A stretch of 64,000 nucleotides of DNA from Psammoneis japonica (GCA_008632985.1 QPGO01000056.1:62001-126000); one strand, 5' to 3'. Numbered from the stretch's first letter, positions 1-63,511 are shown. The notes: generated by a model from the sequence alone, not told the origin. A program made the numbers and translations.

Positions 1-2430
1 CAACACAAGTCCTGACGAACTCCAGACCTGCCATGAGTTCACTCACGTGCTCTTGAAAAACATCTGGAGCTCCGCAGATTCTCACAGGCAGCCTGCAGCA
101 CTCATGTTTGCCCCAAGGCATGATGATTGTGCACAAGCAACGTGCGTGCAGAGTTGATTTGATGTGACAGCATCCCATGTTCAAATCAAGTGAAGTGGCA
201 TGCATGAAACCCTTGAGCTTCTGCAGCACATCTTGAACATTGGGTGGAGGAAATGGATCACACATTGACCTCTCATTTGGTTCACAAAAGTCTGATGGGA
301 ACCAAACTTGACCAATTTTCTTTGGCTGAACAAAGGTTGGAGCTGCCCATTTGCAACAATTGATTTTTCTTAAGACCTTTGGCTTGCACAGTCTTTCAAC
401 TTCCTTTCCAGCAGTCACCTCCAAGGCTTGTGATGTGGGAAATGGCTTTGTGTGATGCGGACTTGCACCCGATTTCAACTTGAGATCCACTGGTTTCCCA
501 GTCTGTTTGCCCAGAGAACCATCAAAAAGATCCTCAAATCTTTTTAGAAGAAAGTTCAGTTGTTTTTGCTCCTCTGGAGTTAGATGAGTTGCTGCTGCAG
601 CCACATTGTTGAGGTCAGCAGCATGATGATCTGAGTCAAGGATCCAATTGACTGTGTCATTAAGACCAATCACGGCATGAGATTCCTCAATGTGATTGGC
701 AACAAACTTGAAAACATTGGCATTGAAGAGTGTGTCAATGTTCTTCACAGGTGCAGTTGCTTCTTCCTGTTTGATTTCTTCATTCAAAAAGTCCAATGTG
801 ACTCCAAGACTGGACAACAAGTTGCATCCCATGATCACATCACAACAACTGGAGGAAGAAGGGGTGTTGTCAACATGTGCTGAAGTTTCCATCATCTCAT
901 GTTTGTCAAATTCAAGTGAGGTGAAATGGATTTTACACTGACTGTCAGTCGTGAAGAGTCCTCCTTTGGTTTCCCAAATTTTGGTGGCAGATTCTTTGGT
1001 TCTGAGTTTCCGCGTGAATTTGTGCAAAATTGTTGTTGACGATCTTCCGCTGTCAAGGAGAATGCACAGAGGCTTGTTTTTTCCTTGCCCAAGGATGCAT
1101 TCACATGGGCAATGACTTCTGGACCAGAGTGAATTGCTTTGGCCTTTTTCCTTGTCTTTCTAGCAACATCCAGCAACACACAAGACTCCTCTGGTGGAGT
1201 GAGTCATTCTTCAAAATCGCTGTGGGTCAATTTTTCAAATTGACGGTTTTCCTCACTGAGGGCATCTGAGTCATGATCCTTGCTCTTGCGCTTTGCATCA
1301 TTGTTCGGGCAACTCAACTTGAACATTTTTTGAACTGCCTTGTCAATCATGGCATTCAGCTCTTCTTTGCGAGTGGCGTTTCCATTGTTGCGACATGACC
1401 ATGTGCGATTGCCATTCGAACAATGCCGTTTTTGATCACGCCCACAATTTCCATTGCATTCCTTGGCAAGTTTTTTAATGACCCAGCATTTGTGTGTGTG
1501 TTGTGAGTGTCCTTTTTGCAGCACTTACACCACTTTTCAGGATCATCTCGTTCAGCACCAGATTGGCAACCATTTTTGGAACCATGACTGGATCCATCTT
1601 TGGCTTTTGACCCAGGCTTGCCACTGGCATCAGCCTTGACATTGACAGAGTCAAAGATGTCCTCAGCAACCTCCAGTCACTCCAAGAACTCCACCAACTC
1701 ATCACAGGCATGCTTTAAATTCTTGAAACCTTGAAGAGTCAACTGGCGCTGCCATTTGCATGGCACAAGGTTGTAAAAGACATCCTTGAGCTTGTTGCCC
1801 TTGAGCTTCTGATCTTCTGCAAAGGGAGGACAATGCTTGAGGTCTTCGTTGACTTCTTGGATCCAAGTGGCGATTTCTCGGATCTTCATGGTTTCTGGTT
1901 TCTTGAGATCATGATGTGGATGAAGCTTTTGAATCTGGAGAGTGTTCTTTGGAAATGCGTGCCTTGTGAGGTGTTGCAGACATTTTTTGAAGGCTGCTTT
2001 GCTCTCTTCATCTTCAAGATTTGCAGCGCCATTCTTGAGTGCATGCAGAGCATCTCCTTGCAGCAGCACACACATGAGACAGAACTCATTGGCTTGTTTC
2101 TTGATGTTCTGGCCCACCAAGAGTTGTCTGTGGTGCTTCAAAAATTGGAGGTGCTTGGGAACACCTTGCTTCTTGCAGTGCTTGACATTGATGGTGTGAA
2201 TGCAACAACTGTCTGTCTTGTCTGGATGAAAACACTGCTCCATCTTGAGACACTGGCTTGGTTTGAGCATCTTTGGCTTGGAGATCAAATCCAAGGGCTG
2301 AGGAACAATTTTCTCCTGCCTTGAGAAAGACTTGGAGTTGGCGGCATGAGGCGAAAGCTTCATTTTTGTTTCTTTTGCCTTCTGTGGTGTGCACACACAA
2401 TGCACTGTGCTCGAAGAACGAGCATCATCA
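1..2430 (-). mobile_element. Ty3/Gypsy LTR retrotransposon, degenerate (gag, protease, N-terminal RT; runs off the window's left edge)
   Basis: Gag ATG at 2363 (MKLSPHAANSKS...), CX2CX4HX4C knuckle (KWCKCCKKDTHNTHKC, ~1490-1535), protease LLDSG (~1045-1062), RT motifs LQKLKGFMHATSLDLNMGCCHI and MPWG (110-235). Colinear with the plus-strand copy at 49.9-54.2 kb. Confidence 0.93.
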
Positions 2431-3154
2431 GAGACCCATGGAAAAGGCCTTGAGTCACAAGTCATCAAACCCCACCATCTCATGGCGTGCACGTGCACGC
2501 CTAGATTGGTGGACCCCCTCCAGATTAAAATCGACATTCACTCATTGCAAAGACAACATTTTTGTTTGTTTTCAATTTGCAGATCAGGCATGGGATGTCA
2601 TGCATTTGTTGCTCCACAAAACATTTTGTTTGAGGTGGGCTGTCGGCCCATTTTTTTTTCGCACGTCTTTTCCGGGTTTTTGCGCATTTTTGACGGGTCG
2701 CGACAGAAAACAACACGACAAAAGCACAAGCGACAATGATGATGTTCGCAACGAGTGGTGAGTTGCAAAGCATCACCTCACGAGGGACCCTCATTGGTTT
2801 TGTTGTCGTCATGCAGTGCAGATTGATTTGTGTGCTTTCGTCCCTCGTGCCACTGGGCCAATTTTGAGAGACAGCACAATTGCCGTCATCGTCGTGCTTC
2901 GATCGCGGTGCCTGATGTTCTCGTTTTTGTGGGCGATCGAACAATTCTTGCATTTAAAACCAACAATTGCAAACAAACGCATTCAAACACATTGCCAATT
3001 TTAGGACAAATGTGGAAAAAACATGTCGGTGGTCCCCCTTGAGGCTGGGAACCCCCTTGTGTTTTCGACATGTGTTTGTAAAAAGCATCAAAAACAACCA
3101 ATCTTTTGATCATTTGTGGTGCAATTGTGGAAAAAATGTCCCAACGCGTTCGGC

Positions 3155-3353
3155 GCTCACCGTGCAAACAACACGACAATGGCCGAAATGCCGTTCGTTC
3201 TCGAAAACTCAGTGGGGCAGCCTCCAACTTTTTTCAGAGTGTGTCATGTTTGACATGGGCAACAAACTTGTGAAGAAAGTTGGAGGCCTCCCCATCTCCA
3301 TTGCGCTCAATGAACGGCATTTCAGCCATTGTCGTGTTGTTTGCACGGTGAGC
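3155..3353. repeat. 45-bp inverted repeat with ~110-bp spacer (second copy at ~7469-7666)
   Basis: gctcaccgtgcaaacaacacgacaatggccgaaatgccgttcgtt (3155-3199) versus its near-perfect reverse complement at 3309-3353. Confidence 0.85.
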
Positions 3354-5883
3354 TCAGAATTCGCGCTCAAGCTGTTTGAGCGTTTTCCACAAATCTCACG
3401 CATTCGCAAAAAATGCTGTTTCATTTCATCCGTTTTTCTGGTGAAATTTCCAAAGTTCCCCCGAAAACAAGGGATTTCCCACCCTTGGGTTTGCATTTGT
3501 CAACTTGAGCACCAAAATGCCAAGTCACACGGCCACATCATTCCCTCAACTGAGGACAATTGCATTTCATTCCAGCTTAAAAAACATTCATTTTCATGTT
3601 GCACGTGGCATTTCTTTTGCCAAAATTTCTGCATTTCCGTCCTCATGATGGATGTTGACAATTCCGCGAAATTTTCCACCATTTTCTGCTTCCCCTCCGA
3701 AACCTCCTCCTCTCTGCCGAACCACAATCTTTCATTTGCACCATTCCCCTGAGCCATCATGTTTGGGGCATTTGTCCCTTCCACTTGTGATCTGCGGGTC
3801 CAATCCCCCATGTTTTGGTGAATCAGCGCAGAGCCACAAAAGCAGCATGATGAGAAGTCCATGGGTTTCTGTGTCCTCTGTTCATGCCGCAATCGCCCAT
3901 GGCGGTTTGTCTCTCCCGCCGTTGCGACCATGCCCCGTCTCAAAGTCACACCCAAGTGAAAGCAACGTGTCTCTCTTCTTGCTCTGAATCATTTGGGGAT
4001 GACACCGAATGTGAAACTCACCCATCGCACCGCTTTGTCACGTCTCCAGACCACAACGGCTTGCTCAATGATGTTTTTTCGACATCCAACATGGCAGCAA
4101 ACCTCTCCAATGACGTCAATCTTAGCTCTGACGATGCCTCCGATGGCAACAACTTGTCTGCTCAAGACCTTGATGGTTGTGCCAGTGATCTTTCTTTTCC
4201 CAACGAAGATGATGCAGGTGTCGATTCTTTAGACGGAGGCAATGTTTCTGTTCTTGACAACCACACCAAAGTGTGCACAAATGGCATTGAAGGCACCTGC
4301 GTGACGAAGTCCCAACTTAAAAAAAATCATCAAGATGCAGCACCACCATCAGAAGTTCATCAAGACTCACAAATGGACACCCTCCGCTGATCTCATTGCC
4401 CTGCCCTTCGTTCATTGTAACTGCCAGAATTGAGTCTCCCATTTCTTCATGGAAGTGTTGATGGTCAATGATGTGGTTGCCCATTCTCTTGGCTGCAAAG
4501 ATGGCTTTCATTGTGTAAAAAGTCGTGGCTGGATGTGTTCTTGTTGCAAAGATGGGAGGCATGTTCTGGAGTGCTGCAAGCTGGCCAAAACATTTTCCAA
4601 TCTTTCCTGATTCAGCAAACATCTCCGTGCAATCATTGACGATTTGTGCAAGATGACAGCAAGCTAACAAATTGGCAATGACCCTTGCTTCCTTTGGCTC
4701 AACAGCTTCAGATCCAAATTGGATTTTTTGCACAATGCCTGAGCATCGCTGTCACCATGACAGACTGTTGCTTTCTCCCTCACGTCGACAAAGAGTCAGG
4801 CAATTTTTGATGCTGGTCGACCATTGTTTTTTCTGGCTGCAAAAAGAGGAAACAGTTTGTGCTGTTTTGCAATGATGTTTTGACCCTGATGAACACAGAT
4901 CAGAAGTTGAAGGATGGGAAGGTTGTCAAGAAGATCCTCGTTGATCATCTGGAATGTGTCAAGGCTTGCGTCAACACTCATGCCATGGCAAAAGGCATGG
5001 CACAAAAACACCAAGAGTTGGTTGAACATGAGCTCCATTCCACCTTCAAGCACTCCTGCAAGGACACAAATTGTCTCAAGTTCCGCAACCTGGCAATTGT
5101 GCGATCACGTGTCAGCAATCTCATGCATCCATGCCTTTCCCATGAGGCCAAGGCAAAGTTTGTTTCTTCCACCAAGAGGAGAAAGAAGAGCAAGGAGTCC
5201 TCCAGTGTGTCTCTGCTGGTTCTCCAGCACCTCCGCCCACTTCATCCAAGAAAGACACCAACCAGAATCCTGTTGCTCCATCAGCACACTTGCCTCCCAG
5301 TTGCAACCCTGACAACAAAGTCAAGGCATTGTCGGATGGAGAGTTGCCATCGGCGGGTGAATCATTGACTGATGACAACCCCATCCAAAATGTTCCCAAT
5401 GCCAGTGCTGTGGGTCCATCCCTGGGAGGAGTTGCTTCTTCAGCATCTCCATTGAAGCCAAGCACATCGGCCAGCACCACAACTTCCTTGTCAATTGAAG
5501 ACTGGTTCCCCCATGGTCTTTGTTGCCGCTTTGCGTCCCTTGCTGATGTCTCAAGGCATGCTCCTCGCGTTTGTGTTTTTTATGATCCAGACGATGATGA
5601 TGATGACAGCGAGCAATCTGCCAATCGTGAGCCAAACCTGTGTCATTCTCCAGCAGACCATTGCTCACTTGACGATCTGCAACATCATCTCCATTCCTTT
5701 GTGATGACGCAACCACTTCCTTCTGCCACAAATCATGATCGGGAGCTGGCGGTTGTCCCACCCAGAGCTCAACACATTCAGGGTGACGCTGCCATTTTGC
5801 GATTGTCCTCATGTCTTTGGCAGAAACACTTTGGATCTCTGCAAGTTGATGTCAGCATGATTGCCTGTTTTGTGCTTGAACAC

Positions 5884-6320
5884 AGCTTTGCTCTCTTCAT
5901 CTTCAAGATTTGCAGTGCCATTCTTGAGTGCATGCAGAGCATCTCCTTGCAGCAGCACACACATGAGACAGAACTCATTGGCTTGTTTCTTGATGTTCTG
6001 GCCCACCAAGAGTTGTTTGCGGTGCTTCAAAAATTGGAGGTGCTTGGGAACACCTTGCTTCTTGCAGTGCTTGACATTGATGGTGTGAGTGCGACAACTG
6101 TCTGTCTTGTCTGGATGAAAACACTGCTCCATCTTGAGACACTGGCTTGGTTTGAGCATCTTTGGCTTGGAGATCAAATCCAAGGGCTGAGGAACAATTT
6201 TCTCCTGCCTTGAGAAAGACTTGGAGTTGGCAACATGAGGCAAAAGCTTCGTTTTCGTTTCTTTTGCCTTCTGTGGTGTGCACACACAATGCACTGTGCT
6301 CAAAGAACGAGCATCATCAG
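5884..6320 (-). mobile_element. Duplicated 5' gag fragment of the Ty3/Gypsy element
   Basis: ORF 5809-6381 is nearly identical to the N-terminal part of ORF 1677-2537. Confidence 0.9.
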
Positions 6321-6755
6321 AGACCCATGGAAAAGGCCTTGAGTCACAAGTCATCAAACCCCACCATCTCATGGTGTGCACGTGCGCGCCTAGATTGGTG
6401 GACCCCCTCCAGATTAAAATTGACTTTCATTCATTGCAAAGACAACATTTTTGTTCATTTTCAATTTGCAGATCAGGCGTGGGATGTCATGCATTTGTTG
6501 CTCCACAAAACATTTTGTTTGAGGCGGGCCGTCGGCCCATTTTTTTCGCATGTCTTTTCTGGGTTTTTACGTGTTTTTGACGGGTCGCGACAGAAAACAA
6601 CATGACAAAAGCACGAGCGACAATGATGATGTTCGCGACAAGCGGTGAGTTGCAAAGCATCACCTCACGAGGGACACTCATTGGTTTTGTTGTCGTCATG
6701 CAGTGCAGATTGATTTGTGTGCTTTCATCCCTCGTGCCACTGGGCCAATTTTGAG

Positions 6756-7174
6756 CAGTGTCAACCAATTGCTGGGATCGACTGCAATCAGCCTCACTTT
6801 GATTGCAGTTGCAATTGCAAACTCGATTGCAGTGACCTGATTGTCAGGAAAGAGCCAAGGTCGCAATCACAGTCGACTGTTGCAGTCGATTGCAGTCAAA
6901 ATTCAAGCTCTTTTTTTAGCTAAAATCAGTGAAATGGCTCGATTCTTTGCCTGCGGCGGGCTTTTCTCCTGTGCGGAGTGCGCTCTTGCGCAGAGAGCGC
7001 CCCTGTGTGGGGGGCATGCCTGGCCGGCGGGGCGACTGCAGCCACGATTGCAATCTGTTCGTCAGACCGCGCAATCGCTGCGTGATTGCAGTTGACCAAT
7101 TGCTGTTCCACAGCGATGCAATCGACTGACTGCAATCTGATTGCTGCAGAAAACTTTGCAATTGGTTGACCCTG
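6756..7174. mobile_element. hAT-superfamily MITE (419 bp)
   Basis: 17-bp TIRs cagtgtcaaccaattgc / gcaattggttgaccctg (1 mismatch). 8-bp TSD attttgag at 6748-6755 and 7175-7182. The empty site with a single attttgag is at 2861-2868. Many subterminal gattgca/tgcaatc motifs. Confidence 0.93.
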
Positions 7175-10100
7175 ATTTTGAGAGATGGCACAATTGCCGT
7201 CATCGTCGTGCTTCGATCACGGTGCCTGATGTTCTCGTTTTCGTGGGCGATCGAACAATTCTTGCATTTTAAATTGACGATTACAAACAAACGCATTCAA
7301 ACACATTGCCAATTTTAGGATAAATGCGGAAAAAACATGTCGGCGGTCCCCCTTGAGGCTGGGAACCCCCTTGTGTTTTTGACATGTGTTTGTAAAAAGC
7401 ATCAAAAATGACCAATCTTTTAATCATTTATGACGCAATTATGGAAAAAATGTCCCAACGCGTTCGGCGCTCACCATGCAAACAACACGACAATGGCCGA
7501 AATGCCGTTCGTTCTCGAAAACTCAGTGGGGCAGCCTCCAACTTTTTTCAGAGTACATCGCGTTTGACATGGGCAACAAACTTGTGAAGAAAGTTGGAGG
7601 CCTCCCCATCTCCATTGCGTTCAACGAACGGCATTTCAGCCATTGTCGTGTTGTTTGCACGGTGAGCTCAGAATTCGCGCTCAAGCCGTTTGAGCGTTTT
7701 TCCATAAATCGCACGCATTCGCAAAAAATGCTGTTTTATTTTATCCGTTTTTCCAGTGAAATTTCCAAAATTCCCCCGAAAACAAAGGGATTTCCCACCC
7801 TTAATTTGCATTTGTCAACTTGAGCACCAAAATGCCAAGTCACACGGCCACATCATTCCCTCAACTGAGGACAATTGCATTTCATTCCAGCTTAAAAACA
7901 TTCATTTTCATGTTGCATGTGGCATTTCTTTTGCCAAAATTTCTGCATTTCCGTCCTCATGATGGATGTTGACAATTCCGCAAAATTTTCCACCATTTTC
8001 TGCTTCCCCTCCGAAACCCCCTCCTCTCCGCCGAATCACAATCTTCCATTTGCACCATTCCCCTGAGCCATCATGTTTGGGGCATTTGTCCCTTCCACTT
8101 GTGATCTGCGGGTCCAATCCCCCATGTTTTGGTGAGTCAGCGCAGAGCCACAAAAGCAGCATGATGAGAAGTCCATGGGTTTCTGTGTCCTCTGTTCATG
8201 CCGCGATCGCCCATGGCGGTTTGTCTCTCCCGCAGTTGCGACCATGCCCCGTCTCAAAGTCACACCCAAGTGAAAGCAACGTGTCTCTCTTCTTGCTCTG
8301 AATCATTTGGGGATGACACCGAATGTGAAACTCGCCCATCGCACCGCTTTGTCACGTCTCCAGACCACAACGGCTTGCTCAATGATGTTTTTTCGACATC
8401 CAACATGGCAGCAAACCTCTCCAATGATGTCAATCTTAGCTCTGACGATGCCTCCAATGGCAACAACTTGTCTGCTCAAGACCTTGATGGTTGTGCCAGT
8501 GATCTTTCTTTTCCCAATGAAGATGATGCAGGCGCCGATTCTTTGGACGGAGGCAATGTTTCTGTTCTTGACAACCACACCAAAGTGTGCACAAATGGCA
8601 TTGAAGGCACCTGCGTGACGAAGTCCCAATTAAAAAAAAAATCATCAAGATGCAGCACCACCATCAGATGTTCATCAAGACTCACAAATGGACACCCTCT
8701 GCTGATCTCATTGCCCTGCCCTTTGTTCATTGTAACCACCAGAATTGAGCCTCCCATTTCTTCATGGAAGTGTTGATGGTCAACGATGTGGTTGCCCATT
8801 CTCTTGGCTGCAAAGATGGCTTTCATTGTGCAAAAAGTCATGGCTGGATGTGTTCTTGTTGCAAAGATGGGAGGCATGTTCTGGAGTGCTGCAAGCTGGC
8901 CAAAACATTTTCCAATCTTTCCTGATTCAGCAAACATCTCCGTGCAATCATTGACGATTTGTGCAAGATGACAGCAAGCGAACGAATTGGCAATGACCCT
9001 TGCTTCCTTTGGCTCAACAGCTTCAGATCCAAATTGGATTTTTTGCACAATGCCTGAGCATCGCTGTCACCATGACAGACTGTTGCTTTCTCCCTCATGT
9101 CAACAAAGAGTTTGGCAATTTTTGATGCTGGTCGACCATTGTTTTTTCCGGCTGCAAAAAGAGGAAACAGTTTGTGCTGTTTTGCAATGATGTTTTGACC
9201 CTGATGAACACAGATCAGAAGTTGAAGGATGGGAAGGTTGTCAAGAAGATCCTCGTTGATCATCTGGAATGTGTCAAGGCTTGCGTCAACACTCATGCCA
9301 TGGCAAAAGGCATGGCACAAAAACACCAAGAGTTGGTTGAACATGAGCTCCATTCCACCTTCAAGTGCTCCTGCAAGGACACAAATTGTCTCAAGTTCCG
9401 CAACCTGGCAATTGTGCAATCACGTGTCAGCAATCTCATGCATCCATGCCTTTCCCATGAGGCCAAGGCAAAGTTTGTTTCTTCCACCAAGAGGAGGAAG
9501 AAGAGCAAGGAGCCCTCCAGTGTGTCTCTGCTGGTTTTCCAGCACCTCCGCCCACTTCATCCAAGAAAGACACCAACCAGAATCCTGTTGCTCCATCAGC
9601 ACACTTGCCTCCCAGTTGCAACCCTGACAACAAAGTCAAGGCATTGTCGGATGGAGAGTTGCCATCGGCGGGTGAATCATTGACTGATGACAACCCCATC
9701 CAAAATGTTCCCAATGCCAGTGCTGTGGGTCCATCCCTGGGAGGAGTTGCTTCTTCAGCATCTCCATTGAAGCCAAGCACATCGGCCAGCACCACAACTT
9801 CCTTGTCAATTGAAGACTGGTTCCCCCATGGTCTTTGTTGCCGCTTGGCATCCCTTGCTGATGTCTCAAGGCATGCTCCTTGCGTTTGTGTTTTTTATGA
9901 TCCAGACGACAATGATGATGACAATGAGCAATCTGCCAATCGTGAGCCAAGCCTGTGTCATTCTCCAGCAGACCATTGCTCACTTGACGATCTGCGACAT
10001 CATCTCCATTCCTTTGTGATGACGCAACCACTTCCTTCTGCCACAAATCATGACCGGGAGCTGGTGGTTGTCCCACCCAGAGCTCAACACATTCAGGGTG

Positions 10101-10859
10101 ACACTGCCATTTTGCGCTTGTCCTCACGTCTTTGGCAGAAACACTTTGGATCTCTGCAAGTTGATGTCAGCATGATTGCCTGTTTTGTGCTTGAACACGG
10201 CTGTTCCAATCCAAACCATGACAAGAAGATCAAGCGCTGCAAGAAACACAACAATGATCGGTCCAAGCAGCCAGAGAAATGGGGCCGGATCGATTGTGGC
10301 TGCCAGGGAACATTTTGTAAAGAGAGGAATCGTCATCGTCATGCTCATTGTCATTGCAACCCTTGTCTTCCTCTTCCTCCTCTTCCTCCTCCTCCTGTGG
10401 AAAGCTGGGTGAGTTGTCATCTCTGTTGAGGTCCGTGCTGCGATTCAGTGCTTTGTCATTCTCAGATGCAGAAATGGACAACTTACAAGCAATTTGCTGC
10501 TCTTGGAATGCAAAAACGGCGGCTTGCAACAACTGGCTCAATTGAGTTGTGGCAGACGCACGAGGACGGGCTACATTTTGTGAGTGGTGGCAGCAATGGT
10601 GGCAAACAGGCATGCCAAGCTAAGAGTGTGATTGGAGACAAGGAAGGCAAAGATGCATGATGAGACAATTGGATGCTTGTTCACAACCATTTGTTGGCAT
10701 GCAGGTGTTGGATTGATTTTTGAATCAAATTGTTGAGTGTGCACCTGGTTGATTTTTGAGTGGGAGACACTTGGCATGGTGGCAATTTCCACCAGAGGGT
10801 TGGCCACAGGGAGGCAATTGGACATGAGGGCACACACATGTTTGGAAATTAAAGATGAC

Positions 10860-46799: not shown

Positions 46800-47516
46800 A
46801 GATGTGAAAGTGTGACAATTGTGTGTGACTGTTGAGGACAAGAGAGACTGAATGTTGTCTCTGCATTCCTTGCTTTCTCCAATGCAGTTTTTGCTTTGGA
46901 AGGGAACCTGGTGGAGTTTGAAGATTTGCACAAAGGCAGGGATGACAAGGACATGCGCACATGGTTCTTGGAGATGACAGTGCCTGCGGTGATGGGCCAA
47001 GCACAGTTTGGAAGGAGCACATCAGATCTGCTCAAAGAGTGGCTGACAACATCTTCTGAGGCCTTTGCTCTGCTGCTGCACACAAACTTCTGTGACAAGG
47101 TCATTGACACAGCAGGGATGTTGGAGAAGAAGGACAACAGAACAAGGAGCAGAAAGCTGATGATGATGGGTGCAAAGAATGCCAAGTGCATGGCAAAGGC
47201 TTGGGAGGAATTGGCAAAGAGGAGCCAAGGTTGGAGCAAGGCGGGCATCGTGAAGCACAATGAGCTGTGTGCGTGGGTGGTGCAAGACTGGGAGAAGAAT
47301 GATGGATTTGGTGTGTGGTTCAAGGAACAGAGATGCACAAAGGCTGAATTGTCAAAGGAGGTGGAGAAGAAACACAAGAGGGAAGAGAGCAAAAAGAAGA
47401 AGAAGGAGGAAGGGTGGGATGCCCCAATGGGAGAGGCACTGCCATTGCAGTGGGTGGCTGCCAACGATGGCACAAATGAAGCAGCAGCAATGGCGACCCA
47501 CCAAACTGCTGTGTGA
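46800..47516 (+). pseudogene. Degenerate TE-associated ORF (SEAFALLL...GWS..G..NEL motif family)
   Basis: ORF 46896-47516: LTTSSEAFALLLHTNF ... GWSKAGIVKHNELCAWVVQD. Confidence 0.5.
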
Positions 47517-49939
47517 ACTCAAATTGCAGCAAATGACAAAGACCAGAATGTTCAGAAATAAAATAAAAACTGGGGTGCAACTTTTGATGCAACAGTCAGT
47601 GAAAAACAATTGGTTGTTCAAACATTGCTTTTGAAGCAAGAACGAGGAGATTAAAAAGGTGGGAGGAAATCACCAGAGCAATTCTGGTTTACATGCAGAA
47701 ACAGATTCTAAGAAAAAGCAAAAAAACCAACATGCAAAACAAGAGGCAAGTTAGATTGTGGGCAACCATGGTCATTGTTCAAAGTGAGGTGCAAGGTGGA
47801 ATCTAGAAATTGCAAACCCAATCATTTCTGAGCTCACATTTGAACAAATGCTTGACTTGAGAAGGAACAAAAATCTTGGTTTGAAGTCAAGCCATTGGCT
47901 GCCGGATTGTGACAGGTGGCCAAGCCCGGATCATTGGCATCCCAGATGCTCCCCAGAGCTCCTGTTCATCTGCAAACATTTGCACTGGAGCTGCCAGCAT
48001 GATGAAATTCTGATGCAGAGCATCAAAGGGTTGCAAACCAAGCAAAAAGTTTTGGGCTAAAGTGCAGAGCAATGGGGTGTGGAGCCCCTCACTCATTTGT
48101 GACAAGCCCATCAGGCGCTGCAACTTCCACTTGGCACCTGGGAGCTCAGGACACAAGGAGCTTGTTGAGAAGACAGCAATGGAGATGGCCTTCATGGGAA
48201 GAGTTTATGGGAAGAAAGATCTGCTTTCAAGCAAAATTCAACACGCAGGGTGAATGTGTCGTCTTCCCTTCCACTTCAACCATGTTGAAATGGCAGTCCT
48301 CTGAGCCTCATTTGTCTGCAATCCAGGGCAGCCGAGGTGTGGAACACTGTCAACATTTGCATGATTGCACAAAGTGTTCTCTCTGTTGAACATTCTGTTG
48401 TTTAAATCCACAAGTGACTTTCTAGGTTCTGCAGAAAGAGCTGCTGTGGGGCACAACAAATTCAACAAGGAGCTCTCTGGACCTTCAATGAGGAGGCAGG
48501 TGAAAGCAAAGTCTTCTTTGATGGTGCAAAATTTCATTTTTTTTTTTGGAGGAACAAAAGTCAGCGCCCAATTGTGGCATTGTCACCTTTCTTTTTCCCT
48601 TTCAGCATTTTGGCAGCTTGGTTGCATGCACTTTTCATGTGTGGCTCTGTCACAATGAGGTTGCATCAACCATTGAGATGCATGATGCACACTCAACTCA
48701 ACACAAAAGCAACAGGTTGTTCAGCACAATGACAGAGAGTTGTTCAACATGTCACAAGAGGGCAACAAGGTCTCAAACCTTGGTCCATGACAAACTGTTG
48801 CATTCCTGTGACCGATCTCAGCACTGACTCTCCCACCCACTCAGCCACTTACAGTCAGTTGTTCACAAATGAAAGTTTGATGTCACTTGACTGGGTGGTC
48901 AGTGAAAAGCATCAAGAGGAACAGATGAAACAACAATGCAAGAGAAGACACAAAGCTGCAGATGTGTGAGCAAGACTTGGTGGTGCACTTTTCACCATTG
49001 CCATTGCTTCCATCATTGCAGTGCAGGAAGGGCCAATTGGAAGCAACAATCAGCAGTGTCATCGAAAATGTGGACAATTCTTTTCTTTCCCTCAGCGTCA
49101 CTCTGCAGCGTGCTCTTGCCAACCATGCCATGCTCCATTGCTGGTGACAGAATGCCAACAGTTTTCAAACACAGACTCGTGCATTCTGTTTGTCACTGTG
49201 GAATGAAAAAGAGAATGACTGTTGCATGAAACAGGCTTTTCACATTCCTTGAGCACACTGCTCAAAACAGAATGTGAGGTGCATTCCATGAAAAGAGGCC
49301 TCCACAAAACATGCAAAAACGGTCTTGTTTCTTGTGGAATGGCTCAGAGGAATGTGAGAAAAAAGGCTTGTTCCACACATTTCTGTGAAGTCTTGTTTGC
49401 ACAGAAAATGCAAACCCCCCAAGATGGCACCCATGTTGGGGGACCCCTTTGTCCATCTTGGGGGACTCTTGTTTCTGTTTCACCACGGCCCCCCTGCTGT
49501 CGCATGTTGAGGGGTTGTGCCGCAACTCAAGGTTCCCACTTCAAACCCTCGGTGCAGGCTTCCCGCACATGCTCGGCATGTGTCAAGGTTGGCATGTGGA
49601 GCCATCAAACCGAGGGTCTTCATGCCTTCACCCGACATTGCGCAATGGCTTTCGCTCATCGTCGAAGAAAAACAAACAAATTTTTGGGCTGTGATCTTCG
49701 TTTTTCTGGATGTCGAAAATGGCAAATACGATCGTACGATGATGTTGACATCTCATGTGTCAATGTCAATCGCATCCGGACAATCTGTTGTCACGATCTT
49801 ATTCTCCGAAAGGCCTCTTGTCTGTGGGAACAGTGCAAATGCTTTAGGCCATTGAGAACTCATTCGGAGAAACCCAAAATGATTGGATGGAAACAATTCT
49901 CATAATTTTCACTTTTCATGCTTGGCTCTACTTTCGTTT

Positions 49940-52900
49940 GTGCTCGTTCTTCAAGCACAGTGCATTGTGCACACACACCACAGAAGGTGACAAGTCGAAG
50001 ATGAAGCTTTCACCTCATGCAACTAATGCCAAGACTTCGTTGAGGCAAGAGAAAATCGTTCCTCAGCCGTTGGAATCGAATTCCGAGCCGAAGATGCTCA
50101 AACCGAGTCAGCACCTCAAGATGGAGCAGTGTTTTCATCCCGAGAAGAAGGACAGTCGCACCCACACTGTCAATGTCGAGCACTGCAAGAAGCAGGGCGT
50201 TCCCAAGCACATCGAATTTCTCAAGAGCTGCGGTCAACTTCTGGTGGGCCAGAACATCAAGAAGCAAGTGGACAAGTTCCGTCTCATGCATGTGCTGTTG
50301 CAAGGAGATGCTCTGCATGCTTTTGAGAATGGAGCAACGAATGTTGAAGACGAATCTGAAGAAGGAAGCTTCGAGAAATGCCTGCAGCACCTTGCGCGAC
50401 ATGTGTTTCCCAAGAACGCACTCCAGATTCAGAAACGGCATTTGCATCGCGATCTCAAGAAGCCAGAGTCCATGAAAGTGCGCGAAATCGCTGCTTGGGT
50501 CCAGGAAGTCAATGAAGACCTCAAGTTCCATCCTCCCTTTGGAGAGGATCAGAAGATTGAGGAGGACGAGCTCAAGGACATCCTCTTTAATCTTGCACCT
50601 CGAAAGTGGCAGCATCAGTCGACCGTCCAAGGTTTCGAAATTTTGAAACACACCTGCGACGAGTTGGTTGAGTTTCTGGAGCGCCCAGAGGTTGCAGAGG
50701 ACGTGTTTGACAGCATTCATGTCAAGGCTGATCCCAGTGGCAGTGCTGGATTGAAAGCCAAGAATGGCTCCAAACATGGTTCCAAAAATGGTCACCAACA
50801 TGGTGCCGAAAATTCTCAGTCCAACAAGTGGTGCATTCCATGCAAAAAATCCACTCACAACATGGACAAATGCTCTGGTTGATTAAGAAACTGGCAAAAG
50901 AACGCCGTGGAAACATTGAGTGTGATCCAAAACGGCGCCGTTCAAATGGCAATCGCACGTGGTCGCGTCGCGATGACGAAAATGCCTCTCGCAAGGAAGA
51001 GTTGAATGCCGTGGCAGTCCAGGCAGTTCAAAAAACACTCAAGGCGAGTTCCTCAAACAAGGGAAAAAAGCACAAGAGCAAAGATTGCGACTCTGATGCC
51101 CTTGATGAGGAGAACTGTCAACTTGAAAAAATGACGCGCAGCAATTCTGACGAATGACTTGCACCGCAAGAGGAGTCTTGCGCATTGCTGGACATTGGGA
51201 AGCCCAGAAAAAGGGCCAAAACAATTCACGCTAGTCCAGCAGTTGTTGCTCACATGAGTGCCTCATTGGGCAAAGCAAAAAACAAGCCTCTGCACGTTCT
51301 CCTCGACAGCGGAACATCGTCAACCACAATTTTGCACAAATTCACGCGGAAACTCAGAACAAAAACATCCGCCACCAAGATCTGGGAAACCAAAGGAGGG
51401 CACTTTACGACTGACAGTCGGTGCAAAATCCAGTTCTCCTTGCCCGAATTTGACAAACACAAGATGATTGAAAGAACGGTGCATGTTGACAATGCCCCTT
51501 CTTCTTTGAGTCATTGTGATGTGATCATGGGACACAACTTGATGTCAAGTCTTGGAATGGCATTGGACTTCTCAAACAAAGAGATCAAATGGGAGGGCGC
51601 AACTGCACCCATGAAGAATGTTGACACACTCTTGATGCCAATGTTTTTAAGTTGATTGCTGATCACATTGAGGATTCTCATGCTGTGATTGGTCTTGATG
51701 ACAGGGTCAATTGGATCCTTGACTCAGATTGTCACGCTGCCAACCTTGACAATGTGACAGCAGCAGCAACTCACCTAACTCCAGAAGAGCAGAAGCAGCT
51801 AAACTTCCTCTTAAAAAGATTTGAAAACCTTTTCAATGGTTCTCCAGGCAAATGGACTGGGAAACCGGTGGATTTAAAGTTGAAGTCGGACGCGAGTCCG
51901 TGTTGTGCCAAACCATTTCCCATGCCACAAGCCTTGGAGGCAACTGCTTGAAAGGAGGTTGAAAGACTGTGCAAATTAAAAGTCTCAAGAAAAACAAATT
52001 GTTCTGAACAGGCAGCTCCAACTTTCATTCAACCAAAGAAAAATGGTCGAGTTTGGTTTTTGTCCAACTTTTGTGAGCTGAACAAGAGGTTGATGCACGT
52101 GCCGTTTCCTCCACCCAATGTTCAGGACATGCTGCAAAAACTTGAAGGTTTCATGCATGCAACATCCCTTGATTTAAACATGGGACACTGTCACATCGAA
52201 TCAATCCGCATGCACGTCGTTTGAGCACGATTGTCATGCCTGGGGGCAAATGTGAGTGCTGCAGACTCCCTGTGGGAATCTGTGGAGCTCCAGATGTTTT
52301 CCAAGAGCACGTGAGTGAGCTCATGGCAGGTCTGGAGTTCATCAGGACTTGTGTTGATGACATGCTGTGCCTGTCAAAAGGTGATTTCCAAGACCACCTC
52401 AAGAAGCTTGAGACGGTGCTTTTGCACCTTGAACAAGCCGGGTTGAAGGTCAATGCCGAAAAGTCTTTTTTCACTAAACCCGAAGCAGACCATCTGGGCT
52501 TTCATGTCACCCGCAATGGCATCAGCCCCATTCCAAAAAAGGTAGAAGCGATTCACACGATCGCAACTCCTGAAACTTGCAAAGAATTGCAACGCTTTGT
52601 CTGCATGATCAACTGCTGTCGAGACATGTGGCCTCAATGATCTCATGTTCTGGCTCCTTCAGCCAAACTTTCTTCAGACCAAGCAAAGTGGCAATGGACC
52701 AAAACAGAACAAAAAGCCTTCAAAAATGTGAAGCGCATCATCTCCAAAGACACACCACCATCACATCCGAATTTCAACACACCCTTTGAGATGTGTGCTG
52801 ATGCAAGCAATTCTCAATTGGGGGCGGTTGTCACACAGAACAACCAACCAATTGCCTTCTGCAGCCGCAAGCTGAATGGAGCACAGACACATTACACTGC

Positions 52901-54160
52901 AATGGAAAAAGAACTGTTGTCCACAGTGGAGACGTCAAAAGAGTTCCGAAATGTGCTGTTTGGCCAACAGACAAACATGCACACAGACCACAAAAATCTC
53001 ACACACAAAAATTTCACAACGGACAGAGTCATGCATTGGCATCAATGACAGAAGAACACAGTCCCGAAACAATGTGCCTCGAGGGCAAGCCCACCTTTGT
53101 CACAGATGCAATTGGTCAACTTGCCATGAAAAACACAGAACCTGTGGAAAACCTCAGCACAGAAGAGCCAGCTGAGAAGGTCCCACCAAAATCCTGCGAC
53201 AATGTCTTTCCATTAAATTGCAAAGTTCTTGACACTGAACAAAAACAGGATGAAGACATTCTCTCCAAATTGTCTGACAAGACATTTCACACGAAGACTT
53301 TTCGTGGAGGTGAGTGAGACTGGTTGCTCATGTGTCACAAGGGTGAAATCATCATTCCAAAGACATTGCAAAAGGCAGTGACAGACTGGCATCATGCGTG
53401 CCTTCTTCACCCTGGCACAAATTGAACAGAAGAAACAATCTCACAAAACACTTGTGGTGGTCTGCCTTGTGTGAAGACATGCGAAAATACATGTGGAGAT
53501 GTGAGACGTGCCAAAAATTCAAAAAGAAACACAAGAAATGCGGACATTTGTCTCCCAAGTGTGCAGAATCAGTGCCATGGGAACGACTGTGTGTGGATCT
53601 TGTTGGACCATGCAAAATGCATTGCAAGGGAAAGAAGAAACCCCCAGTCCTGAAATGTTCAACAATGGTTGATCCAGCAACCGGATGATTGAAGTTGTGG
53701 AAATTCCAAATGAGGAATCCACAACTGCAGCTGGACTGTTAGAACGGACATGAGACATCCTTGGTCATCGTCAATCACTCATGACCATGGAAGTGAGTTC
53801 ATCAGACACCAATTCAAGGACATGGTGCAAGATGATTGTGGCATTAAAGTCAAGCCTGCAACCACATGAAATCCACAAGCAAACGCAATTGTTGAACGCG
53901 TGCATCAAGTGCTGGGAAACATGATCCGTGCACTTGATTTGCAACATGCACCTCTGGACACTGAAGATCCTTTCACTGGAACATTGTCAGCAGTGGCATT
54001 TGCAGTGCATTCTGTGCATCACACCACTGCTGTGTGCAAGCCACACCTGGACAATTAGTCTTTAACAGAGACATGATGTTTGACATCCAACATGTCGCAG
54101 ACTGGAAATTCATCCAGCAGCGAAAACAAAAAATTGCAAATAAAAACAATGCTTGACCAT
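49940..54160 (+). mobile_element. Ty3/Gypsy retrotransposon internal region (gag-PR-RT-RH-IN), degenerate and 3'-truncated
   Basis: Gag ATG at 50001 with a CIPCKKSTHNMDKC knuckle; protease LLDSG (~51300); RT SLDLNMGHCH and TCVDD; RNase H CADAS...AFCSRKL...EKELL...HTDHKNL; integrase H..HPG...CETC, CVDLVGP, HDHGSEF, NPQANAIVERVH. The domain order is diagnostic of Gypsy. Confidence 0.96.
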
Positions 54161-54289
54161 CAAACAAATTGCGCGGATCAAAAGTTCAGAATCAGAGCCA
54201 AAATCGACACAGGCATGTGGTGGGCTGTCTCTGAATCTTCATGACTAAAATTGGCCCCAAAAAAAGGCGCGAAATTTTGAAATGAGAAA

Positions 54290-56660
54290 AAACTTGCTCA
54301 GTGCACGTCGCCGTCACCATCACTCTCCTCACCATCATCTTCGTTGTTTCGATCAACTGCACTGGACAGATCAACAACAACAGCATCAATGGGGATGGCA
54401 ACATCCTCATCCTTGCATGTCTCATCAACAACAAGGTTTCCAATGGTGCCAGAGATGCTGCCGCACAACTTGATGAATGTGTTGTCCATCTGTCTCACGG
54501 CTTCATGACAGAGTCCCATGCAGTTGACGGCGGATTTCTTTTCATCTTCAGGTGCATCTCCATCATGCTCATTTCCATGCCATCCAGTTCTAAGATCCTC
54601 AATTGTTTGCTTCATTGTTCTCTTGTTGCAGCAGTTGTCAGCAACGCCATTCTTTCTGCACACCCAAAAGATCTCTGTCGGCTGCAAATCAGGACAGCAC
54701 GGCGGAGTCCAAAGTGTCTTGTGCCCGCGGTCGGAAAGGCATTTTTCAACCTTGCAATCAAGCAGCTCTGGTTTGTTCTCTTTGCAGCAGGTGACAAAAG
54801 CCAACTTGAGCTCCTCAGAGGAAGCCACCCCTTGGCAAAGTGGATCCCGCTCATTGCAATTGTTCTTTGGTGCAAAACGGAACGCGAGTGATTTCACAGC
54901 GGTCTTGGACTTCGCTGTCCTCGCCAGAATCAATCAGATCAAGTCTTGAGTTGCTGAGAGGCAAGTCAACATGCTCCACTTCATGCTTTTGCATTGGCTC
55001 AACCATTTTCTTCTTTGACAGGTTCGCCAAGGAACCAGCTTCTCACTTGTGGTGGCATGGCGCATTGTCGGCTGCAACACACAGCTGCTGGTGAGAGTCA
55101 ATGCATCACGGCGACGTGTTGCAGCCTTTAAATGTCACAAAGGGCATGACAAAAATGACCTTTTGTCTGCATGCATGCTGCACTGTGAATTCACAGCGGA
55201 GTGGTTCATCGCAACCATCAGGCAGGAGGCCAGGGGTTCGAAACCCTGAGTGGGAGTTGTCTGCAGCAACGTTGATCACTGTCGAACGCGCAAAACTCTG
55301 TGCAGTTCTGTGTGTTCCTTCGCACGCACCCACACTCTTCCGCCAAAACCGTGCAGTGTCAGCACACGTTGGCAAAGAGCCGCATGGACGCGCGACACAT
55401 GGGGAGGAGTGCAATGTGCAGCTGCCAATGAGAGTCAATGTGTCACGGCGACGTGTTGCAGCCTTTAAATGTCACAAAGGGCATGACAAAAATAACCTTT
55501 TGTCTGCATGCACACTGCACGGCGACGAGTGCCATTTTTTTCCCTGAAAACTTGGACTCGAATGTTGGGACGAGCTTGTTTGCAACCCACCTCACAAAGT
55601 TCTCACTGCTCACATTAAGACGGCAGTCTCCTGACTTGCTGTCAGCCATCCAGAGGCATTCAGCAGTTCTGCTTCCGACTGGAGCAGTGCCCTCACCTGG
55701 ATGCGGCGTGTCACCTCTCCAGGTGAGGTCATCCACCGGCTTGCCATTCTCGTTGTAATCACACAAAGGCCCAAACTGAGTCATTGCGCACAAAATGATC
55801 AACCTTCGTCCCTTGCCAGCGCTCTTGCCAGTGTGTTGGTTGTCTTGGGAATGACACGAATTTGAAGTTCCGCGCGCAGAGCGAACATGCGACTCATCCG
55901 TGAATGCAAAGACAAGGCCTTCAGGATTGCCCTCGTCAATGGCTTTGACCACAGTGTCAAAGTCGACAAGAAAGTCTCTAACAGCTTCATTTCTGAAACT
56001 GCTTGGAGCTCTTCTCTTGGGCTTTGATTTCCTCCATAACAGGCCGAGCTGCTTCATCTTGCATTGGACTGCACGTCAATGAACATTGACACCTTGGTCC
56101 TTTCGAAGCCAACCACGAATCTTCCGGTTCGTGACATTGCGGCCTTCTTGATGTTGACCATCAACCCACTTTGCCATCTCCAGAAGTGCCTCTGGAGGAA
56201 CCTTTGACTGTTTTGAAGAGTCACAGTTCTCGGAGGCACCGCCGCGTCCTCCACCGCCAAATGCCAGAATGGATCCATCATCAAGGAAGTTTTTGCGAAT
56301 GTCTGACACATGCTCCCACCGAACCATGAAGTCTTTGGCAACTTCTTGCTCGACAGAAGTCCAGGCAAGCTTTGGCGCAGAACCACATCCTTCCTGGATG
56401 GCATCCAATCTCCATCGCAGACATGCGGCAAGTGCAAGAATCAGCACTTTGTTCTCTTCACATGATCGTGAACGTCCATTTGGGTTCCTGAGAGTCGAAA
56501 TCGTGTCGGCGAAGACATTCACCTGGTCAAACCACTTCCTGCTGGCCTCGAGGTCACGTTGCCGGCCGTTGGCACCCTTCTTGCCCCTCCTCTGCTTCTT
56601 GTCAGGCAGTGGCATGATGCCGGTGCATTGGCACACAAATGACAAAATCTGAGGCAAAAT
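54290..56660 (-). mobile_element. IS630/Tc1-mariner DDE transposase pseudogene, split by a TRIM insertion
   Basis: FTDESHV (D1), GKGRRLIIL, MALVA|DNAPCHH (D2, restored by removing 55073-55523), WTPPCCPDLQPTEIFW (E). HTH-like N-terminus in ORFs 56054-56657. Element termini not identified. Confidence 0.9.
55073..55519 (+). mobile_element. TRIM-like miniature LTR retroelement (447 bp)
   Basis: 110-bp direct repeats 55073-55182 and 55410-55519 with TG...CA ends. 4-bp TSD cggc at 55069-55072 and 55520-55523. Polypurine tract ggggaggag (55401-55409) abuts the 3' LTR. Confidence 0.92.
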
Positions 56661-57532
56661 GTGAGCACCAACATCTCAACAAGCATGTGCCAGCGAAAAA
56701 AGCCCAACTTGGCATTGTTCTTCATTGTTCGTGGAACACATTCGGCAACTCACTTGTTCGATGCAACCATTTTTGAAGGACAAGACACATTTCTCTCATC
56801 AAGAGGGTGCATTGTTCCCAGAAATTTTGGCGAGTTTGAAAACTCGTTCGGAGCTCCACGAGAATTTGAAATGAGAGATTCGGCCCTCCACAGCCCGAGT
56901 GTTGAGACATTTGTTTTTCATTGCTGAATGGCTTGATGGCGTGCTGTCGACAACCATTGTTAAAAAGAGGGATTCTCATCGTCAAGTGGTCCGTTGCGGT
57001 GGCGATAGAGCCGTTGAAAAAACGCGCGAAATGCGCGTTCTGGTTTGCACCAACCCTGCGCCCCTCTACGTGCTCAGTAAAACATGTGTACATTCTGAGA
57101 ATTCCGAATTCCTACAATGTCGTCTGTAATTGACACGAAATGTTTTTAGTCATATGATTCGACCGACGCTAATACCGACCACCGCACGTAGAAGTTGAAC
57201 CGTGGTGGTGCGCTGGTCTTCGCTGCGCGCTCGTACGTACCGTACGTGAGAGCTGAACCAAAGAGAATCACTCCCCATCGTTCGTAAAATTAGAGGTTTC
57301 GGTAATATATGATAGATGTACCGTATATATGTACCGGTAGATAGTTTAGTGTTACGTAGAAATCTACGTAATGAGTACCTAGAGTGTATTTCTACGTAGG
57401 CCTAAGTTCTCGCCTAACTACTTTTACAGTGTTATTTGTGTCTCAGACCTCCCAAGCTGGGAGTGTTTGTGTCTGAGCATCTTCATTACGAACGCTGGGG
57501 AGTGAGTGAGAACTCGCGCGCGATTGCGACTA

Positions 57533-63390: not shown

Positions 63391-63511
63391 GAAAATGTGT
63401 TGTGTTATTTGCTCTCATGAAATGCGACGAGTTACTCCGGGTGGAGCGAAGCGCAGGATTGTGAGTTGGTAGTTTATTAAAGTTCAGTTATGTCGAAAGC
63501 TTCCAAGTAGT

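Follow-up and report, generated by a model that had tools for sequence, protein, structure and literature searches.

Genes and elements at the locus

The DNA considered here, a 64,000-bp stretch of the Psammoneis japonica assembly (GCA_008632985.1, QPGO01000056.1:62001-126000; hereafter the window), consists of two domains of transposable elements (TEs), in which the dinucleotide TA has almost disappeared and CA and TG abound, and two gene-bearing regions of ordinary composition. The subject of this report is that footprint and the process that probably left it—that is, a conversion of TA into TG or CA in chromosomal DNA, confined to the TE domains. The features referred to in the text are given below, with dinucleotide contents expressed as observed/expected (o/e) ratios.

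1-24400: TE domain 1, TA-poor and CA/TG-rich, continuing past the left window end; TA o/e 0.03–0.13 in 2-kb windows
1-2424, minus strand: Gypsy/Ty3 copy A, cut by the window end; reverse complement of 49941-52356 at 78.4% identity (self-BLAST)
1987-10202, plus strand: duplicated unit of ~4 kb, TE sequence without class; 1987-2868 matches 5876-6755 (95.7%) and 2861-5887 matches 7175-10202 (96.7%)
7275-7754, plus strand: patch of 480 bp within copy 2 of the duplicated unit that has kept TA and CG
24401-28408, minus strand: TA-normal gene island carrying the protein-coding frame P0001; TA o/e 0.40–0.56, CG 0.64–0.85
28409-56960: TE domain 2, TA-poor and CA/TG-rich; TA o/e 0.02–0.22
28769-29504, minus strand: fragment of the GC-rich retroelement family, 64% identical to 45379-44625, at the edge of domain 2
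36358-36675, plus strand: possible PIF/Harbinger-like DDE transposase remnant (DDE_Tnp_4, E=0.0019, under the Pfam cut-off)
39631-46010, plus strand: GC-rich (58–61%) retroelement of ~6.4 kb bearing a reverse transcriptase (RT), with 185-bp direct repeats at 39631-39815 and 45659-45844
49941-54223, plus strand: Gypsy/Ty3 copy B, decayed (frameshifts, TGA stops), with gag, protease, RT, RNase H, and integrase zinc finger
54451-54888, minus strand: possible Tc1/IS630-like DDE transposase remnant (DDE_3, E=0.0075, under the Pfam cut-off)
56961-64000, plus strand: TA-normal gene region, with the promoter and gene of a full-size ABCG/PDR-type transporter; TA o/e 0.53–0.85, CG ~1
57531-57853: element of 323 bp resembling a miniature inverted-repeat transposable element (MITE), in the ABCG promoter, with a 42-bp perfect terminal inverted repeat (57531-57572 and 57853-57812)

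A Pfam scan of all 236 stop-to-stop frames of at least 100 amino acids (aa) found families on only five open reading frames (ORFs) of the TA-poor parts, and the decayed Gypsy element was the one clear element. Copy B matches RVP_2, RVT_1 (4.5e-10), RT_RNaseH_2 (6.3e-25), and Integrase_H2C2, and has a sense-strand TA o/e of 0.08; by tblastn, 150 homologues span its positions 50750-54223, and homologues span 4-1159 on the minus strand in copy A. The GC-rich retroelement (TA o/e 0.08–0.22, CG 0.76–0.90) carries a further repeat pair, detected by self-comparison at 45510-45655 and 45865-46010. Its long ORFs gave no match in relaxed Pfam, NCBIfam, or PDB sequence searches, and its RT nature is taken from precomputed PF00078 (reverse transcriptase) labels on some of its more than 375 public homologues, the named ones being from the diatom Cyclostephanos tholiformis. 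Homologues of the same family align to 28812-29492 (minus strand). The window has a single N, at 45664, which falls inside the 3′ direct repeat of the GC-rich retroelement. The Tc1-like remnant sits in a highly repeated stretch, with bins 54673-56006 reaching a summed depth of 19,460–45,801 in run X1 (Logan k-mer contigs of accurate DNA), in which single-copy depth is ~60. A tandem duplication of a 129-bp unit with 90% identity occupies 16687-16943 within domain 1.

A sharply bounded loss of TA

The TA-poor parts (1-24400 and 28409-56960; 52,952 bp) were compared with the gene parts, namely the remaining 11,048 bp of the window. When pooled, the former contained 225 TA against ~3,480 predicted from base composition (o/e 0.06), and the latter 449 (o/e 0.61), the value in the TA-poor parts being 0.11 of that in the gene parts. 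CG was also low (0.48 vs. 0.95), CA (1.64 vs. 1.12) and TG (1.72 vs. 1.15) were high, with raw counts of 5,689 CA and 5,419 TG in the TA-poor parts, and the TE/gene ratio of the remaining 12 dinucleotides varied just from 0.88 to 1.14, including those of AA (1.25 vs. 1.16, ratio 1.08) and AT (ratio 0.99). The TE parts had a GC content of 48.7%, the gene parts one of 48.0%. These values bear out an initial annotation of the window, made from the sequence alone, which had described TA as very rare and CA/TG as abundant in both blocks next to host genes of normal composition.

Along 1-24 kb and 29-57 kb, sliding windows of 2 kb had a TA o/e of 0.02–0.13, with a peak of 0.22 in the GC-rich element (41-46 kb), while CA+TG was 1.43–1.94 and CG mostly 0.1–0.5; windows over both gene islands gave TA o/e values of 0.40–0.85. 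The density of TA switches at ~24400-24511, 28408-28599, and 56961-57067, each edge being 100–200 bp wide, and 500-bp bins were found to hold 0–8 TA in domain 1 vs. 10–25 in the gene island. Non-coding and unclassified DNA of the TA-poor parts is depleted to the same degree as the rest. Because TAA and TAG stops are nearly gone, the TA-poor parts contain long, meaningless open frames, and the majority of the 46 frames of at least 200 aa in the window lie within them. Furthermore, the excess of CA+TG over the gene-part baseline (3,619) matches the summed loss of TA (1,879–2,382, depending on the baseline) and of CG (1,495; sum 3,374–3,876), indicating that TA was converted into TG and CA, not merely avoided. 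The compositional anomaly is confirmed as real, extreme, and sharply bounded.

Direction of the change in conserved codons

Outgroups for the Gypsy RT-RNase H stretch were collected by an exhaustive HMMER search and reduced to 150 representatives. Tyr makes up 0.4% of this stretch in the window vs. 3.6–3.7% in the homologues; relative to the latter, His, Cys, Met, and Thr are increased and Ile, Leu, and Arg decreased. Alignment of all homologues to the two Gypsy copies with tblastn yielded a majority residue at 453 codon positions. The 23 consensus-Tyr codons among them are now TGT/TGC (Cys) at 12 positions, CAT/CAC (His) at five, and TTT at four, with one still encoding Tyr and one being an overlapping-frame artefact, whereas non-Tyr positions were kept in 307 of 430 cases (Fisher p=7e-11). 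Changes of Leu to Pro (CCA, five times), of Leu to Ser (TCA, four times), and of Ile to Thr (ACA) or Met (ATG) fit CTA, TTA, and ATA precursors, in line with the initial annotation, which had noted Ile and Leu substitutions compatible with ATA and TTA decay. In addition, 15 of 32 consensus-Arg codons are now TGN/CAN (Arg to Cys, His, Gln, Trp, or stop), showing that CpG decay is polarised as well.

The same pattern was observed in the GC-rich retroelement, an unrelated family, where nine consensus-Tyr codons have become TGY (four) or CAY (three) or remain Tyr (two), with non-Tyr positions kept in 367 of 492 cases (p=0.0017 for Tyr vs. non-Tyr) and Arg in 30 of 44. Motifs in which Tyr had been suspected of becoming His or Cys were located at 43183 (ICVDD), 52347 (TCVDD), 52854 (AFCSRKL), and 52980 (HTDHKNL), and on the minus strand at 55052-55069 (DNAPCH) and 54691-54708 (TPPCCP); the polarised comparison confirms that suspicion for Gypsy and the GC-rich RT element. 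Taken over the two families, TGY or CAY has replaced 24 of 32 conserved Tyr codons, three remaining Tyr. The direction of the change is thereby shown: TA was lost, and TG and CA were gained.

Both strands and individual copies

The 24 Tyr events comprise 16 A>G changes (to TG) and eight T>C changes (to CA) on the sense strand, and since sense-strand T>C is not heritable via retroelement genomic RNA, RNA editing followed by reverse transcription is excluded as their origin. The two Gypsy copies have six Tyr codons in common at which both now encode Cys or His, and they disagree at three of these (CAT vs. TGT twice, TGC vs. CAC once); two of four decayed Arg codons are likewise discordant. The ancestor of the copies therefore still had TAY or CGN at these positions, and each chromosomal copy was struck separately. 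Thus, the process acted on both strands and independently on individual chromosomal copies after their divergence. The initial annotation had argued for action at the DNA level from the involvement of DNA transposons and from hits on both strands; the DNA-level conclusion stands, by way of the both-strand hits in retroelements, while the transposon half of the argument draws on sub-threshold Pfam matches and carries little weight. DNAPCH and TPPCCP are present, and the Tc1-like element to which the initial annotation had assigned them is a possible one, from the sub-threshold DDE_3 match.

The 96.7% pair of the duplicated unit (3 kb) contains 102 single-base differences, 65 of which are covered by 57 differences at pyrimidine–purine (YR) dinucleotides: 38 of CG vs. 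TG/CA, 11 of TA vs. TG/CA, and eight of CA vs. TG. A two-copy estimate, which is rough owing to site heterogeneity, gives a per-copy conversion of ~0.52 for TA and ~0.20 for CG. The use of CA-vs.-TG discordances as a measure of TA loss was rejected, because two copies cannot apportion them between ancestral TA and CG, and Tyr and Arg codons were used instead. In the patch at 7275-7754, copy 2 keeps nine TA where copy 1 has TG or CA, the reverse never occurring there; in or beside this patch (copy-1 coordinates 2904-3373), CG is kept at nine sites by copy 2 and at three by copy 1. The 2-kb windows over the patch have a TA o/e of 0.12–0.13 and a CG o/e of 0.78–0.85.

Sequencing reads, relatives, and other assemblies

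Run X1 contains 95% of the sampled words of 20001-30000 and spans all 30 bins of 44001-64000, with contigs of up to 8.7 kb; the same sequence is thus found in a contig set built from reads. Its single-placement contigs differ from the window by 0.1–0.75%, with 25 differing letters across 6,658 bp (TE sequence) and four across 6,171 bp (gene sequence). The 28 listed differences in the TA-poor part consist of 16 of CG vs. TG/CA, three of TA vs. TG/CA, four rows that form two adjacent CA-vs.-TG doubles, and five of other kinds. Within the 6,658 bp of TE sequence, covered by five long single-placement contigs, window and X1 disagree at three of the 30 TA sites and at 13 of the 209 CG sites, with only five differences outside YR steps (CG, TA, CA, TG). 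In the gene sequence, none of the three listed differences, out of four, falls at any of the 240 TA sites, and the contrast between TE and gene TA sites is significant (Fisher p=0.0013) provided that the unlisted fourth gene difference is also not at TA. Although small in number, the differences between the window and X1 fit continuing hypermutability of TA and CG confined to the TE domains.

Among the closest Gypsy relatives, found at metagenome loci with 50–59% identity, all 77 loci have a TA o/e of 0.51–1.18 (median 0.75), and the metagenome scan revealed no further TA-poor loci. Thirteen of the 77 have a CG o/e of 0.34 or less and yet a TA o/e of 0.51–0.88, demonstrating that CpG decay does not deplete TA; as stated in the initial annotation, such decay cannot change a Tyr codon.

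Five of the 150 Gypsy representatives, which come from other public assemblies, have less than 0.5% Tyr and show Cys or His in the same alignment columns as the window. One is encoded in an 8.2-kb stretch at a contig end with a TA o/e of 0.07–0.23 and 46% GC, and without nucleotide similarity to the window. The contig (G001:C8, L078-L084; 115.8 kb) belongs to a metagenome-assembled genome labelled Actinomycetota, with the TA-poor part at ~107,400-115,818. The edge in L078 between TA-poor and TA-normal sequence was considered as a second biological boundary and rejected, the other 107 kb being of bacterial type (61% GC, compact genes); the join is probably an assembly chimera with DNA of a eukaryote bearing the same footprint, and only the 8.2-kb part counts. 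Tyr-less Gypsy "proteins" of hypermutated origin are already present in public protein collections.

Flanking bases and targeting

Surviving TA steps are strongly biased in their context, with 131 of 225 lying in YTAR (Y, pyrimidine; R, purine); of the 449 TA in the gene parts, 77 do so (p=9e-27). By class, these YTAR survivors are TTAA (65), CTAA/TTAG (43), and CTAG (23). Other classes are represented by no ATAT, four ATAC/GTAT, and two ATAG/CTAT, RTAY being almost wholly converted, and the survivors are T-rich on the 5′ side and A-rich on the 3′ side, typically a T-tract, TA, and an A-tract. A strong dependence of TA conversion on flanking bases is thereby shown. The simplest reading, which is provisional, is that A is converted well before a pyrimidine (equivalently, T after a purine), such that TA would survive only if both strands read TAR.

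The TA-poor domains coincide with the CpG-poor domains. The two processes are nevertheless separable, as the GC-rich element has lost seven of nine Tyr while its CG o/e is still 0.76–0.90. Bins at single-copy contig depth (e.g., 48003-48669 and 56007-56673) lack TA to the same extent as do the high-depth bins of Gypsy and Tc1-like sequence, and the multicopy MITE-like element is spared; targeting is therefore not simply by copy number. Thus, the designation "repeat-restricted" in the initial annotation proved too narrow, with whole domains affected, single-copy-depth stretches included, and a multicopy element untouched. What is shown is restriction to TE domains with edges of 100–200 bp, expressed genes, promoters, and a small multicopy promoter repeat being spared.

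Spared genes and host affinity

The ABCG/PDR gene (~58.05-63.44 kb, plus strand) encodes two nucleotide-binding domains (NBDs) and two transmembrane domains (TMDs) in the order NBD-TMD-NBD-TMD, with ABC_tran and ABC2_membrane each matched twice by Pfam. Its exons are joined across nine GT..AG introns of 69–100 nt by a spliced contig of run X2, indicating that this run contains transcript-derived sequence; X2 contigs leave most TE bins uncovered and played no part in judging TE expression. The homologues of an ABCG exon that carry names all come from diatoms, with 42–52% identity (Nitzschia, Pseudo-nitzschia, Grammatophora, Cylindrotheca, Amphora, Odontella, Mayamaea, Epithemia, Cyclotella, and others), and no Bigelowiella protein occurs among the named homologues of this exon or of the GC-rich retroelement. 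From these homologues, the host looks like a diatom.

The MITE-like element in the promoter of this gene has a TA o/e of 0.92 and a CG o/e of 1.72, neither mutational process having touched it. It is multicopy, with an X1 bin depth of 3,096 vs. ~60, i.e., ~50-fold the single-copy value, where summed contig depth is not a copy number. The element may perhaps lie below a length threshold or be shielded by its promoter location. A microsatellite-like tract with TA steps every 4–6 bp lies upstream of ABCG at 57300-57435, on the TA-normal side of the 57.0-kb edge.

In the other gene island, P0001 (24748-27648, minus strand) is an open frame of 967 aa without introns. It shows an apparent signal peptide, a weak CarboxypepD_reg Pfam match, a low-complexity stretch rich in Ser, Lys, Gly, Thr, and Pro, and His/Asp motifs close to the C-terminus, which may resemble those of LAS-type metallopeptidases. 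Only two homologues of it were found, with 54–58% identity.

Comparison with known systems

The closest precedent is a preprint on the chlorarachniophyte Bigelowiella natans (Mettrop et al., bioRxiv 10.64898/2026.01.13.699255), which describes 15 asexual mutation-accumulation lines. According to its text, of 302 single-nucleotide mutations in the nuclear genome, 231 were located in an integrated nucleocytoplasmic large DNA virus (NCLDV) and an integrated virophage, and 230 of these 231 were A>G or T>C, all at TpA, at a rate of ~6e-7 per site per generation, with only some lines affected (bioRxiv 10.64898/2026.01.13.699255). Low-TpA coding sequences were reported to be enriched in RT and DDE domains, 124 clusters of TpA-poor, CpA+TpG-rich 1-kb windows were described, and an ADAT2-like DNA adenine deaminase was proposed, with ADAT2 homologues that edit DNA cited in support; the main text of the preprint holds no analysis of CpG, flanking context, or diatoms (bioRxiv 10.64898/2026.01.13.699255). 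As far as that account goes, the two cases share A:T>G:C change confined to TpA, both products, selfish or foreign DNA as the DNA struck, and normal host genes. They differ in that the present host looks like a diatom (Stramenopila) and theirs is a chlorarachniophyte (Rhizaria), in extent (a TA o/e of 0.06 over 53 kb here vs. a Rho of 0.45 given for their NCLDV insert), in the targeting of TE islands here, together with CpG decay and a flank rule, and in the kind of data, which consist of a footprint and polymorphism only in our case and of a measured rate in theirs. In the literature searched, no report of TpA hypermutation in diatoms was found, the B. natans preprint being the sole description of this spectrum.

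Repeat-induced point mutation (RIP), known from Neurospora and other fungi, resembles the present case in being a transition hypermutation with dinucleotide specificity, in the irreversible inactivation of selfish DNA, and in the sharp-edged compositional scar that is left. However, RIP turns CpA/TpG into TpA (C>T), and the window shows the opposite, with TA at 0.06, CA/TG at 1.64/1.72, and no fall in GC; furthermore, RIP is triggered by duplication before meiosis, whereas here a multicopy 323-bp repeat escapes and stretches that today have single-copy contig depth are struck. Decay of CpG through 5-methylcytosine (5mC) affects the same domains (CG 0.48 in TE vs. 0.95 in gene parts), and CpG transitions lead the current polymorphism (16/28). 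Such decay is in keeping with the account of Hoguin et al. (2023; PMC9998398), in which diatom TEs are CpG-methylated in a DNMT5a-dependent manner. It can neither remove TA nor alter Tyr codons, however, and the loss of TA is the faster of the two (0.52 vs. 0.20 per copy).

The APOBEC3 and ADAR enzymes of animals offer a likeness in their deaminase-type, context-specific clusters of transitions on selfish nucleic acids as an innate defence. They act on cDNA or double-stranded RNA intermediates and leave a strand-asymmetric footprint, with APOBEC causing C>U and ADAR causing A>I, the latter preferentially with G on the 3′ side. In the window, by contrast, both strands of resident chromosomal DNA are affected, and TAG tends to survive. 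TadA/ADAT2-type adenosine deaminases, together with the adenine base editors derived from TadA, also bear comparison: in their natural substrate, U precedes the edited A (U33-A34), and that of bacterial TadA, UAC, fits the TA(Y) preference suggested by the survivors. Such action on chromatin across whole domains is not known for any natural enzyme.

Proposed mechanism and alternative explanations

The best explanation, to which we assign a probability of about 0.8, is that the TA-poor blocks are old, silenced transposon islands in which a targeted agent has converted TA into TG and CA at the DNA level, by a process of the B. natans type. On this view, almost every 5′-TA-3′ was turned into TG or CA by A:T>G:C change at the A or the T of this palindromic step, and ordinary 5mC-type CpG decay fed the same CA/TG sink. 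The agent may be an enzyme recruited to silenced or foreign chromatin, and the process may be of the same kind as the TpA hypermutation of B. natans. The TpA-specific A:T>G:C mutator that the initial annotation had postulated for TE-rich chromosomal DNA is supported by polarity, copy discordance, mass balance, TA-normal relatives, and the X1 reads, and, given the 2026 B. natans preprint, it is not unprecedented. Pfam scans of the frames of the 64-kb window revealed no deaminase, in agreement with the earlier remark that the responsible enzyme is not evident there.

If the process is real, the chances are about even that its agent is a TadA/ADAT2-like adenine deaminase, which would convert adenine to inosine in 5′-TA(Y)-3′ on transiently single-stranded DNA. 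This chemistry is favoured by the 5′ T requirement, the apparent 3′ pyrimidine preference, and the precedent cited in the B. natans preprint. Its role would be the irreversible inactivation of selfish DNA, and a defence function is plausible.

Several observations weigh against this explanation or its details. The TpG and CpA products are symmetric, so the sequence cannot tell whether A or T was attacked. The flank rule was derived from survivors; a product-count test of it was mixed, with excesses of ACAA/TTGT and GCAA/TTGC that fit a pyrimidine at +1 and ATAC and ATAG classes that do not, and a Tyr-codon test went in the expected direction without reaching significance. Should position −2 play a role, a pyrimidine would be disfavoured at it, in contrast to the tRNA anticodon loop that is edited by ADAT2. 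The two-copy estimator, which is biased by site heterogeneity, suggests that the Gypsy ancestor was maybe already TA-poor (~30 TA in 2.4 kb). Lastly, X1 may be the read set of the assembly itself, in which case it would not represent a separate individual, although an artefact of consensus building or polishing is still excluded by it.

The strongest competitor places the attack on the thymine of TpA, which might be modified—by TET/JBP-type oxidation to 5-hydroxymethyluracil or 5-formyluracil, mispairing with G—or excised and followed by error-prone repair, in either case giving T>C. The symmetric counts of CA (5,689) and TG (5,419) accommodate it, and the survivor rule is equally readable as "R before T"; moreover, thymine hydroxylation with a TpA preference occurs in dinoflagellates, and base J is found at TpA in kinetoplastid telomeres. 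Experimental data come from a single group, whose preprint prefers deamination of adenine, itself without proof. We give the thymine route a low but real probability. A much smaller probability attaches to error-prone repair or replication in heterochromatin with no dedicated editor, for which the CpG decay of the affected domains, implying methylated and late-repaired chromatin, could be adduced. Pol eta, which makes A>G changes at WA motifs (W, A or T) and had been listed as a candidate in the initial annotation, is disfavoured because AA is not depleted (1.08); AT is unchanged (0.99), TA alone is lost (0.11 of the gene value), and near-complete conversion with a tight flank rule resembles the work of a sequence-specific agent.

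The remaining alternatives are scarcely credible. ADAR-like A-to-I hyperediting of retroelement transcripts, fixed by reverse transcription, is suggested by the retroelement nature of both verified families and by the 5′ U preference described as typical of ADARs in the Discussion of the preprint (bioRxiv 10.64898/2026.01.13.699255), but eight of the 24 Tyr events, as well as Leu>Pro/Ser and Ile>Thr, are sense-strand T>C, depletion is uniform over domains of 24–28 kb including unclassified sequence, and TA sites at fixed loci differ between the window and X1. ADARs prefer a 3′ G, which the surviving TAG contradicts, and the B. natans process is described as striking a single-copy, transcriptionally silent insert; hyperediting is thus very hard to sustain. 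An artefact of assembly, polishing, or base calling, such as the misreading of a modified base at heterochromatic TpA, might account for the abruptness of the edges. Modified bases can indeed give systematic long-read miscalls, yet X1 contigs reproduce the window (95% of words of 20001-30000; 30/30 bins of 44001-64000), the amino-acid changes are coherent with codon structure, and Tyr-less Gypsy proteins occur in other public assemblies (5/150), one of them in the 8.2-kb TA-poor stretch, leaving this explanation next to no probability. It is equally improbable that the TEs are natively TA-poor, through element adaptation or selection against TA, or that CpG decay alone is responsible. CpG decay also enriches CA/TG, and most CA-vs.-TG discordances between the Gypsy copies could stem from ancestral CG; on the other hand, all 77 closest relatives have a TA o/e of at least 0.51, 13 of them being strongly CpG-depleted, Tyr codons are unreachable by CpG decay, the two Gypsy copies show different outcomes at shared Tyr codons, the depletion extends in full to non-coding and unclassified DNA, and the GC-rich element lost seven of nine Tyr at a CG o/e of 0.76–0.90.

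Significance

Textbook repeat-directed mutators (RIP, 5mC decay, APOBEC) run toward A:T, and a TA-specific A:T>G:C mutator directed against selfish DNA has been reported once, in B. natans. What is new here is the diatom-like host, the saturation across TE islands, the coincidence with CpG decay, the flank context of the survivors, and the escape of a MITE-like promoter repeat. A saturated footprint in an apparent diatom extends the phenomenon to a second, ecologically dominant lineage, with transposons as a main target and a spatial link to CpG-methylated chromatin. Two handles toward the enzyme are provided, namely the flank rule (RTAY converted, YTAR spared) and the genes common to both hosts and absent from footprint-free relatives. 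In practical terms, hypermutated regions give spurious long ORFs and Tyr-less database "proteins," and homology-based TE annotation largely fails in them.

A broader proposal, which we put forward tentatively and consider rather doubtful at present, is that a chromatin-guided DNA base editor is common to diatoms and chlorarachniophytes, and perhaps to much of the Stramenopila–Alveolata–Rhizaria (SAR) assemblage, deaminating adenine at TA(Y) in silenced foreign DNA alongside cytosine methylation. If this is true, the shared editor would erase Tyr codons together with TAA and TAG stops, and would constitute a distinct eukaryotic genome defence, as well as the natural analogue of the adenine base editors used in laboratories.

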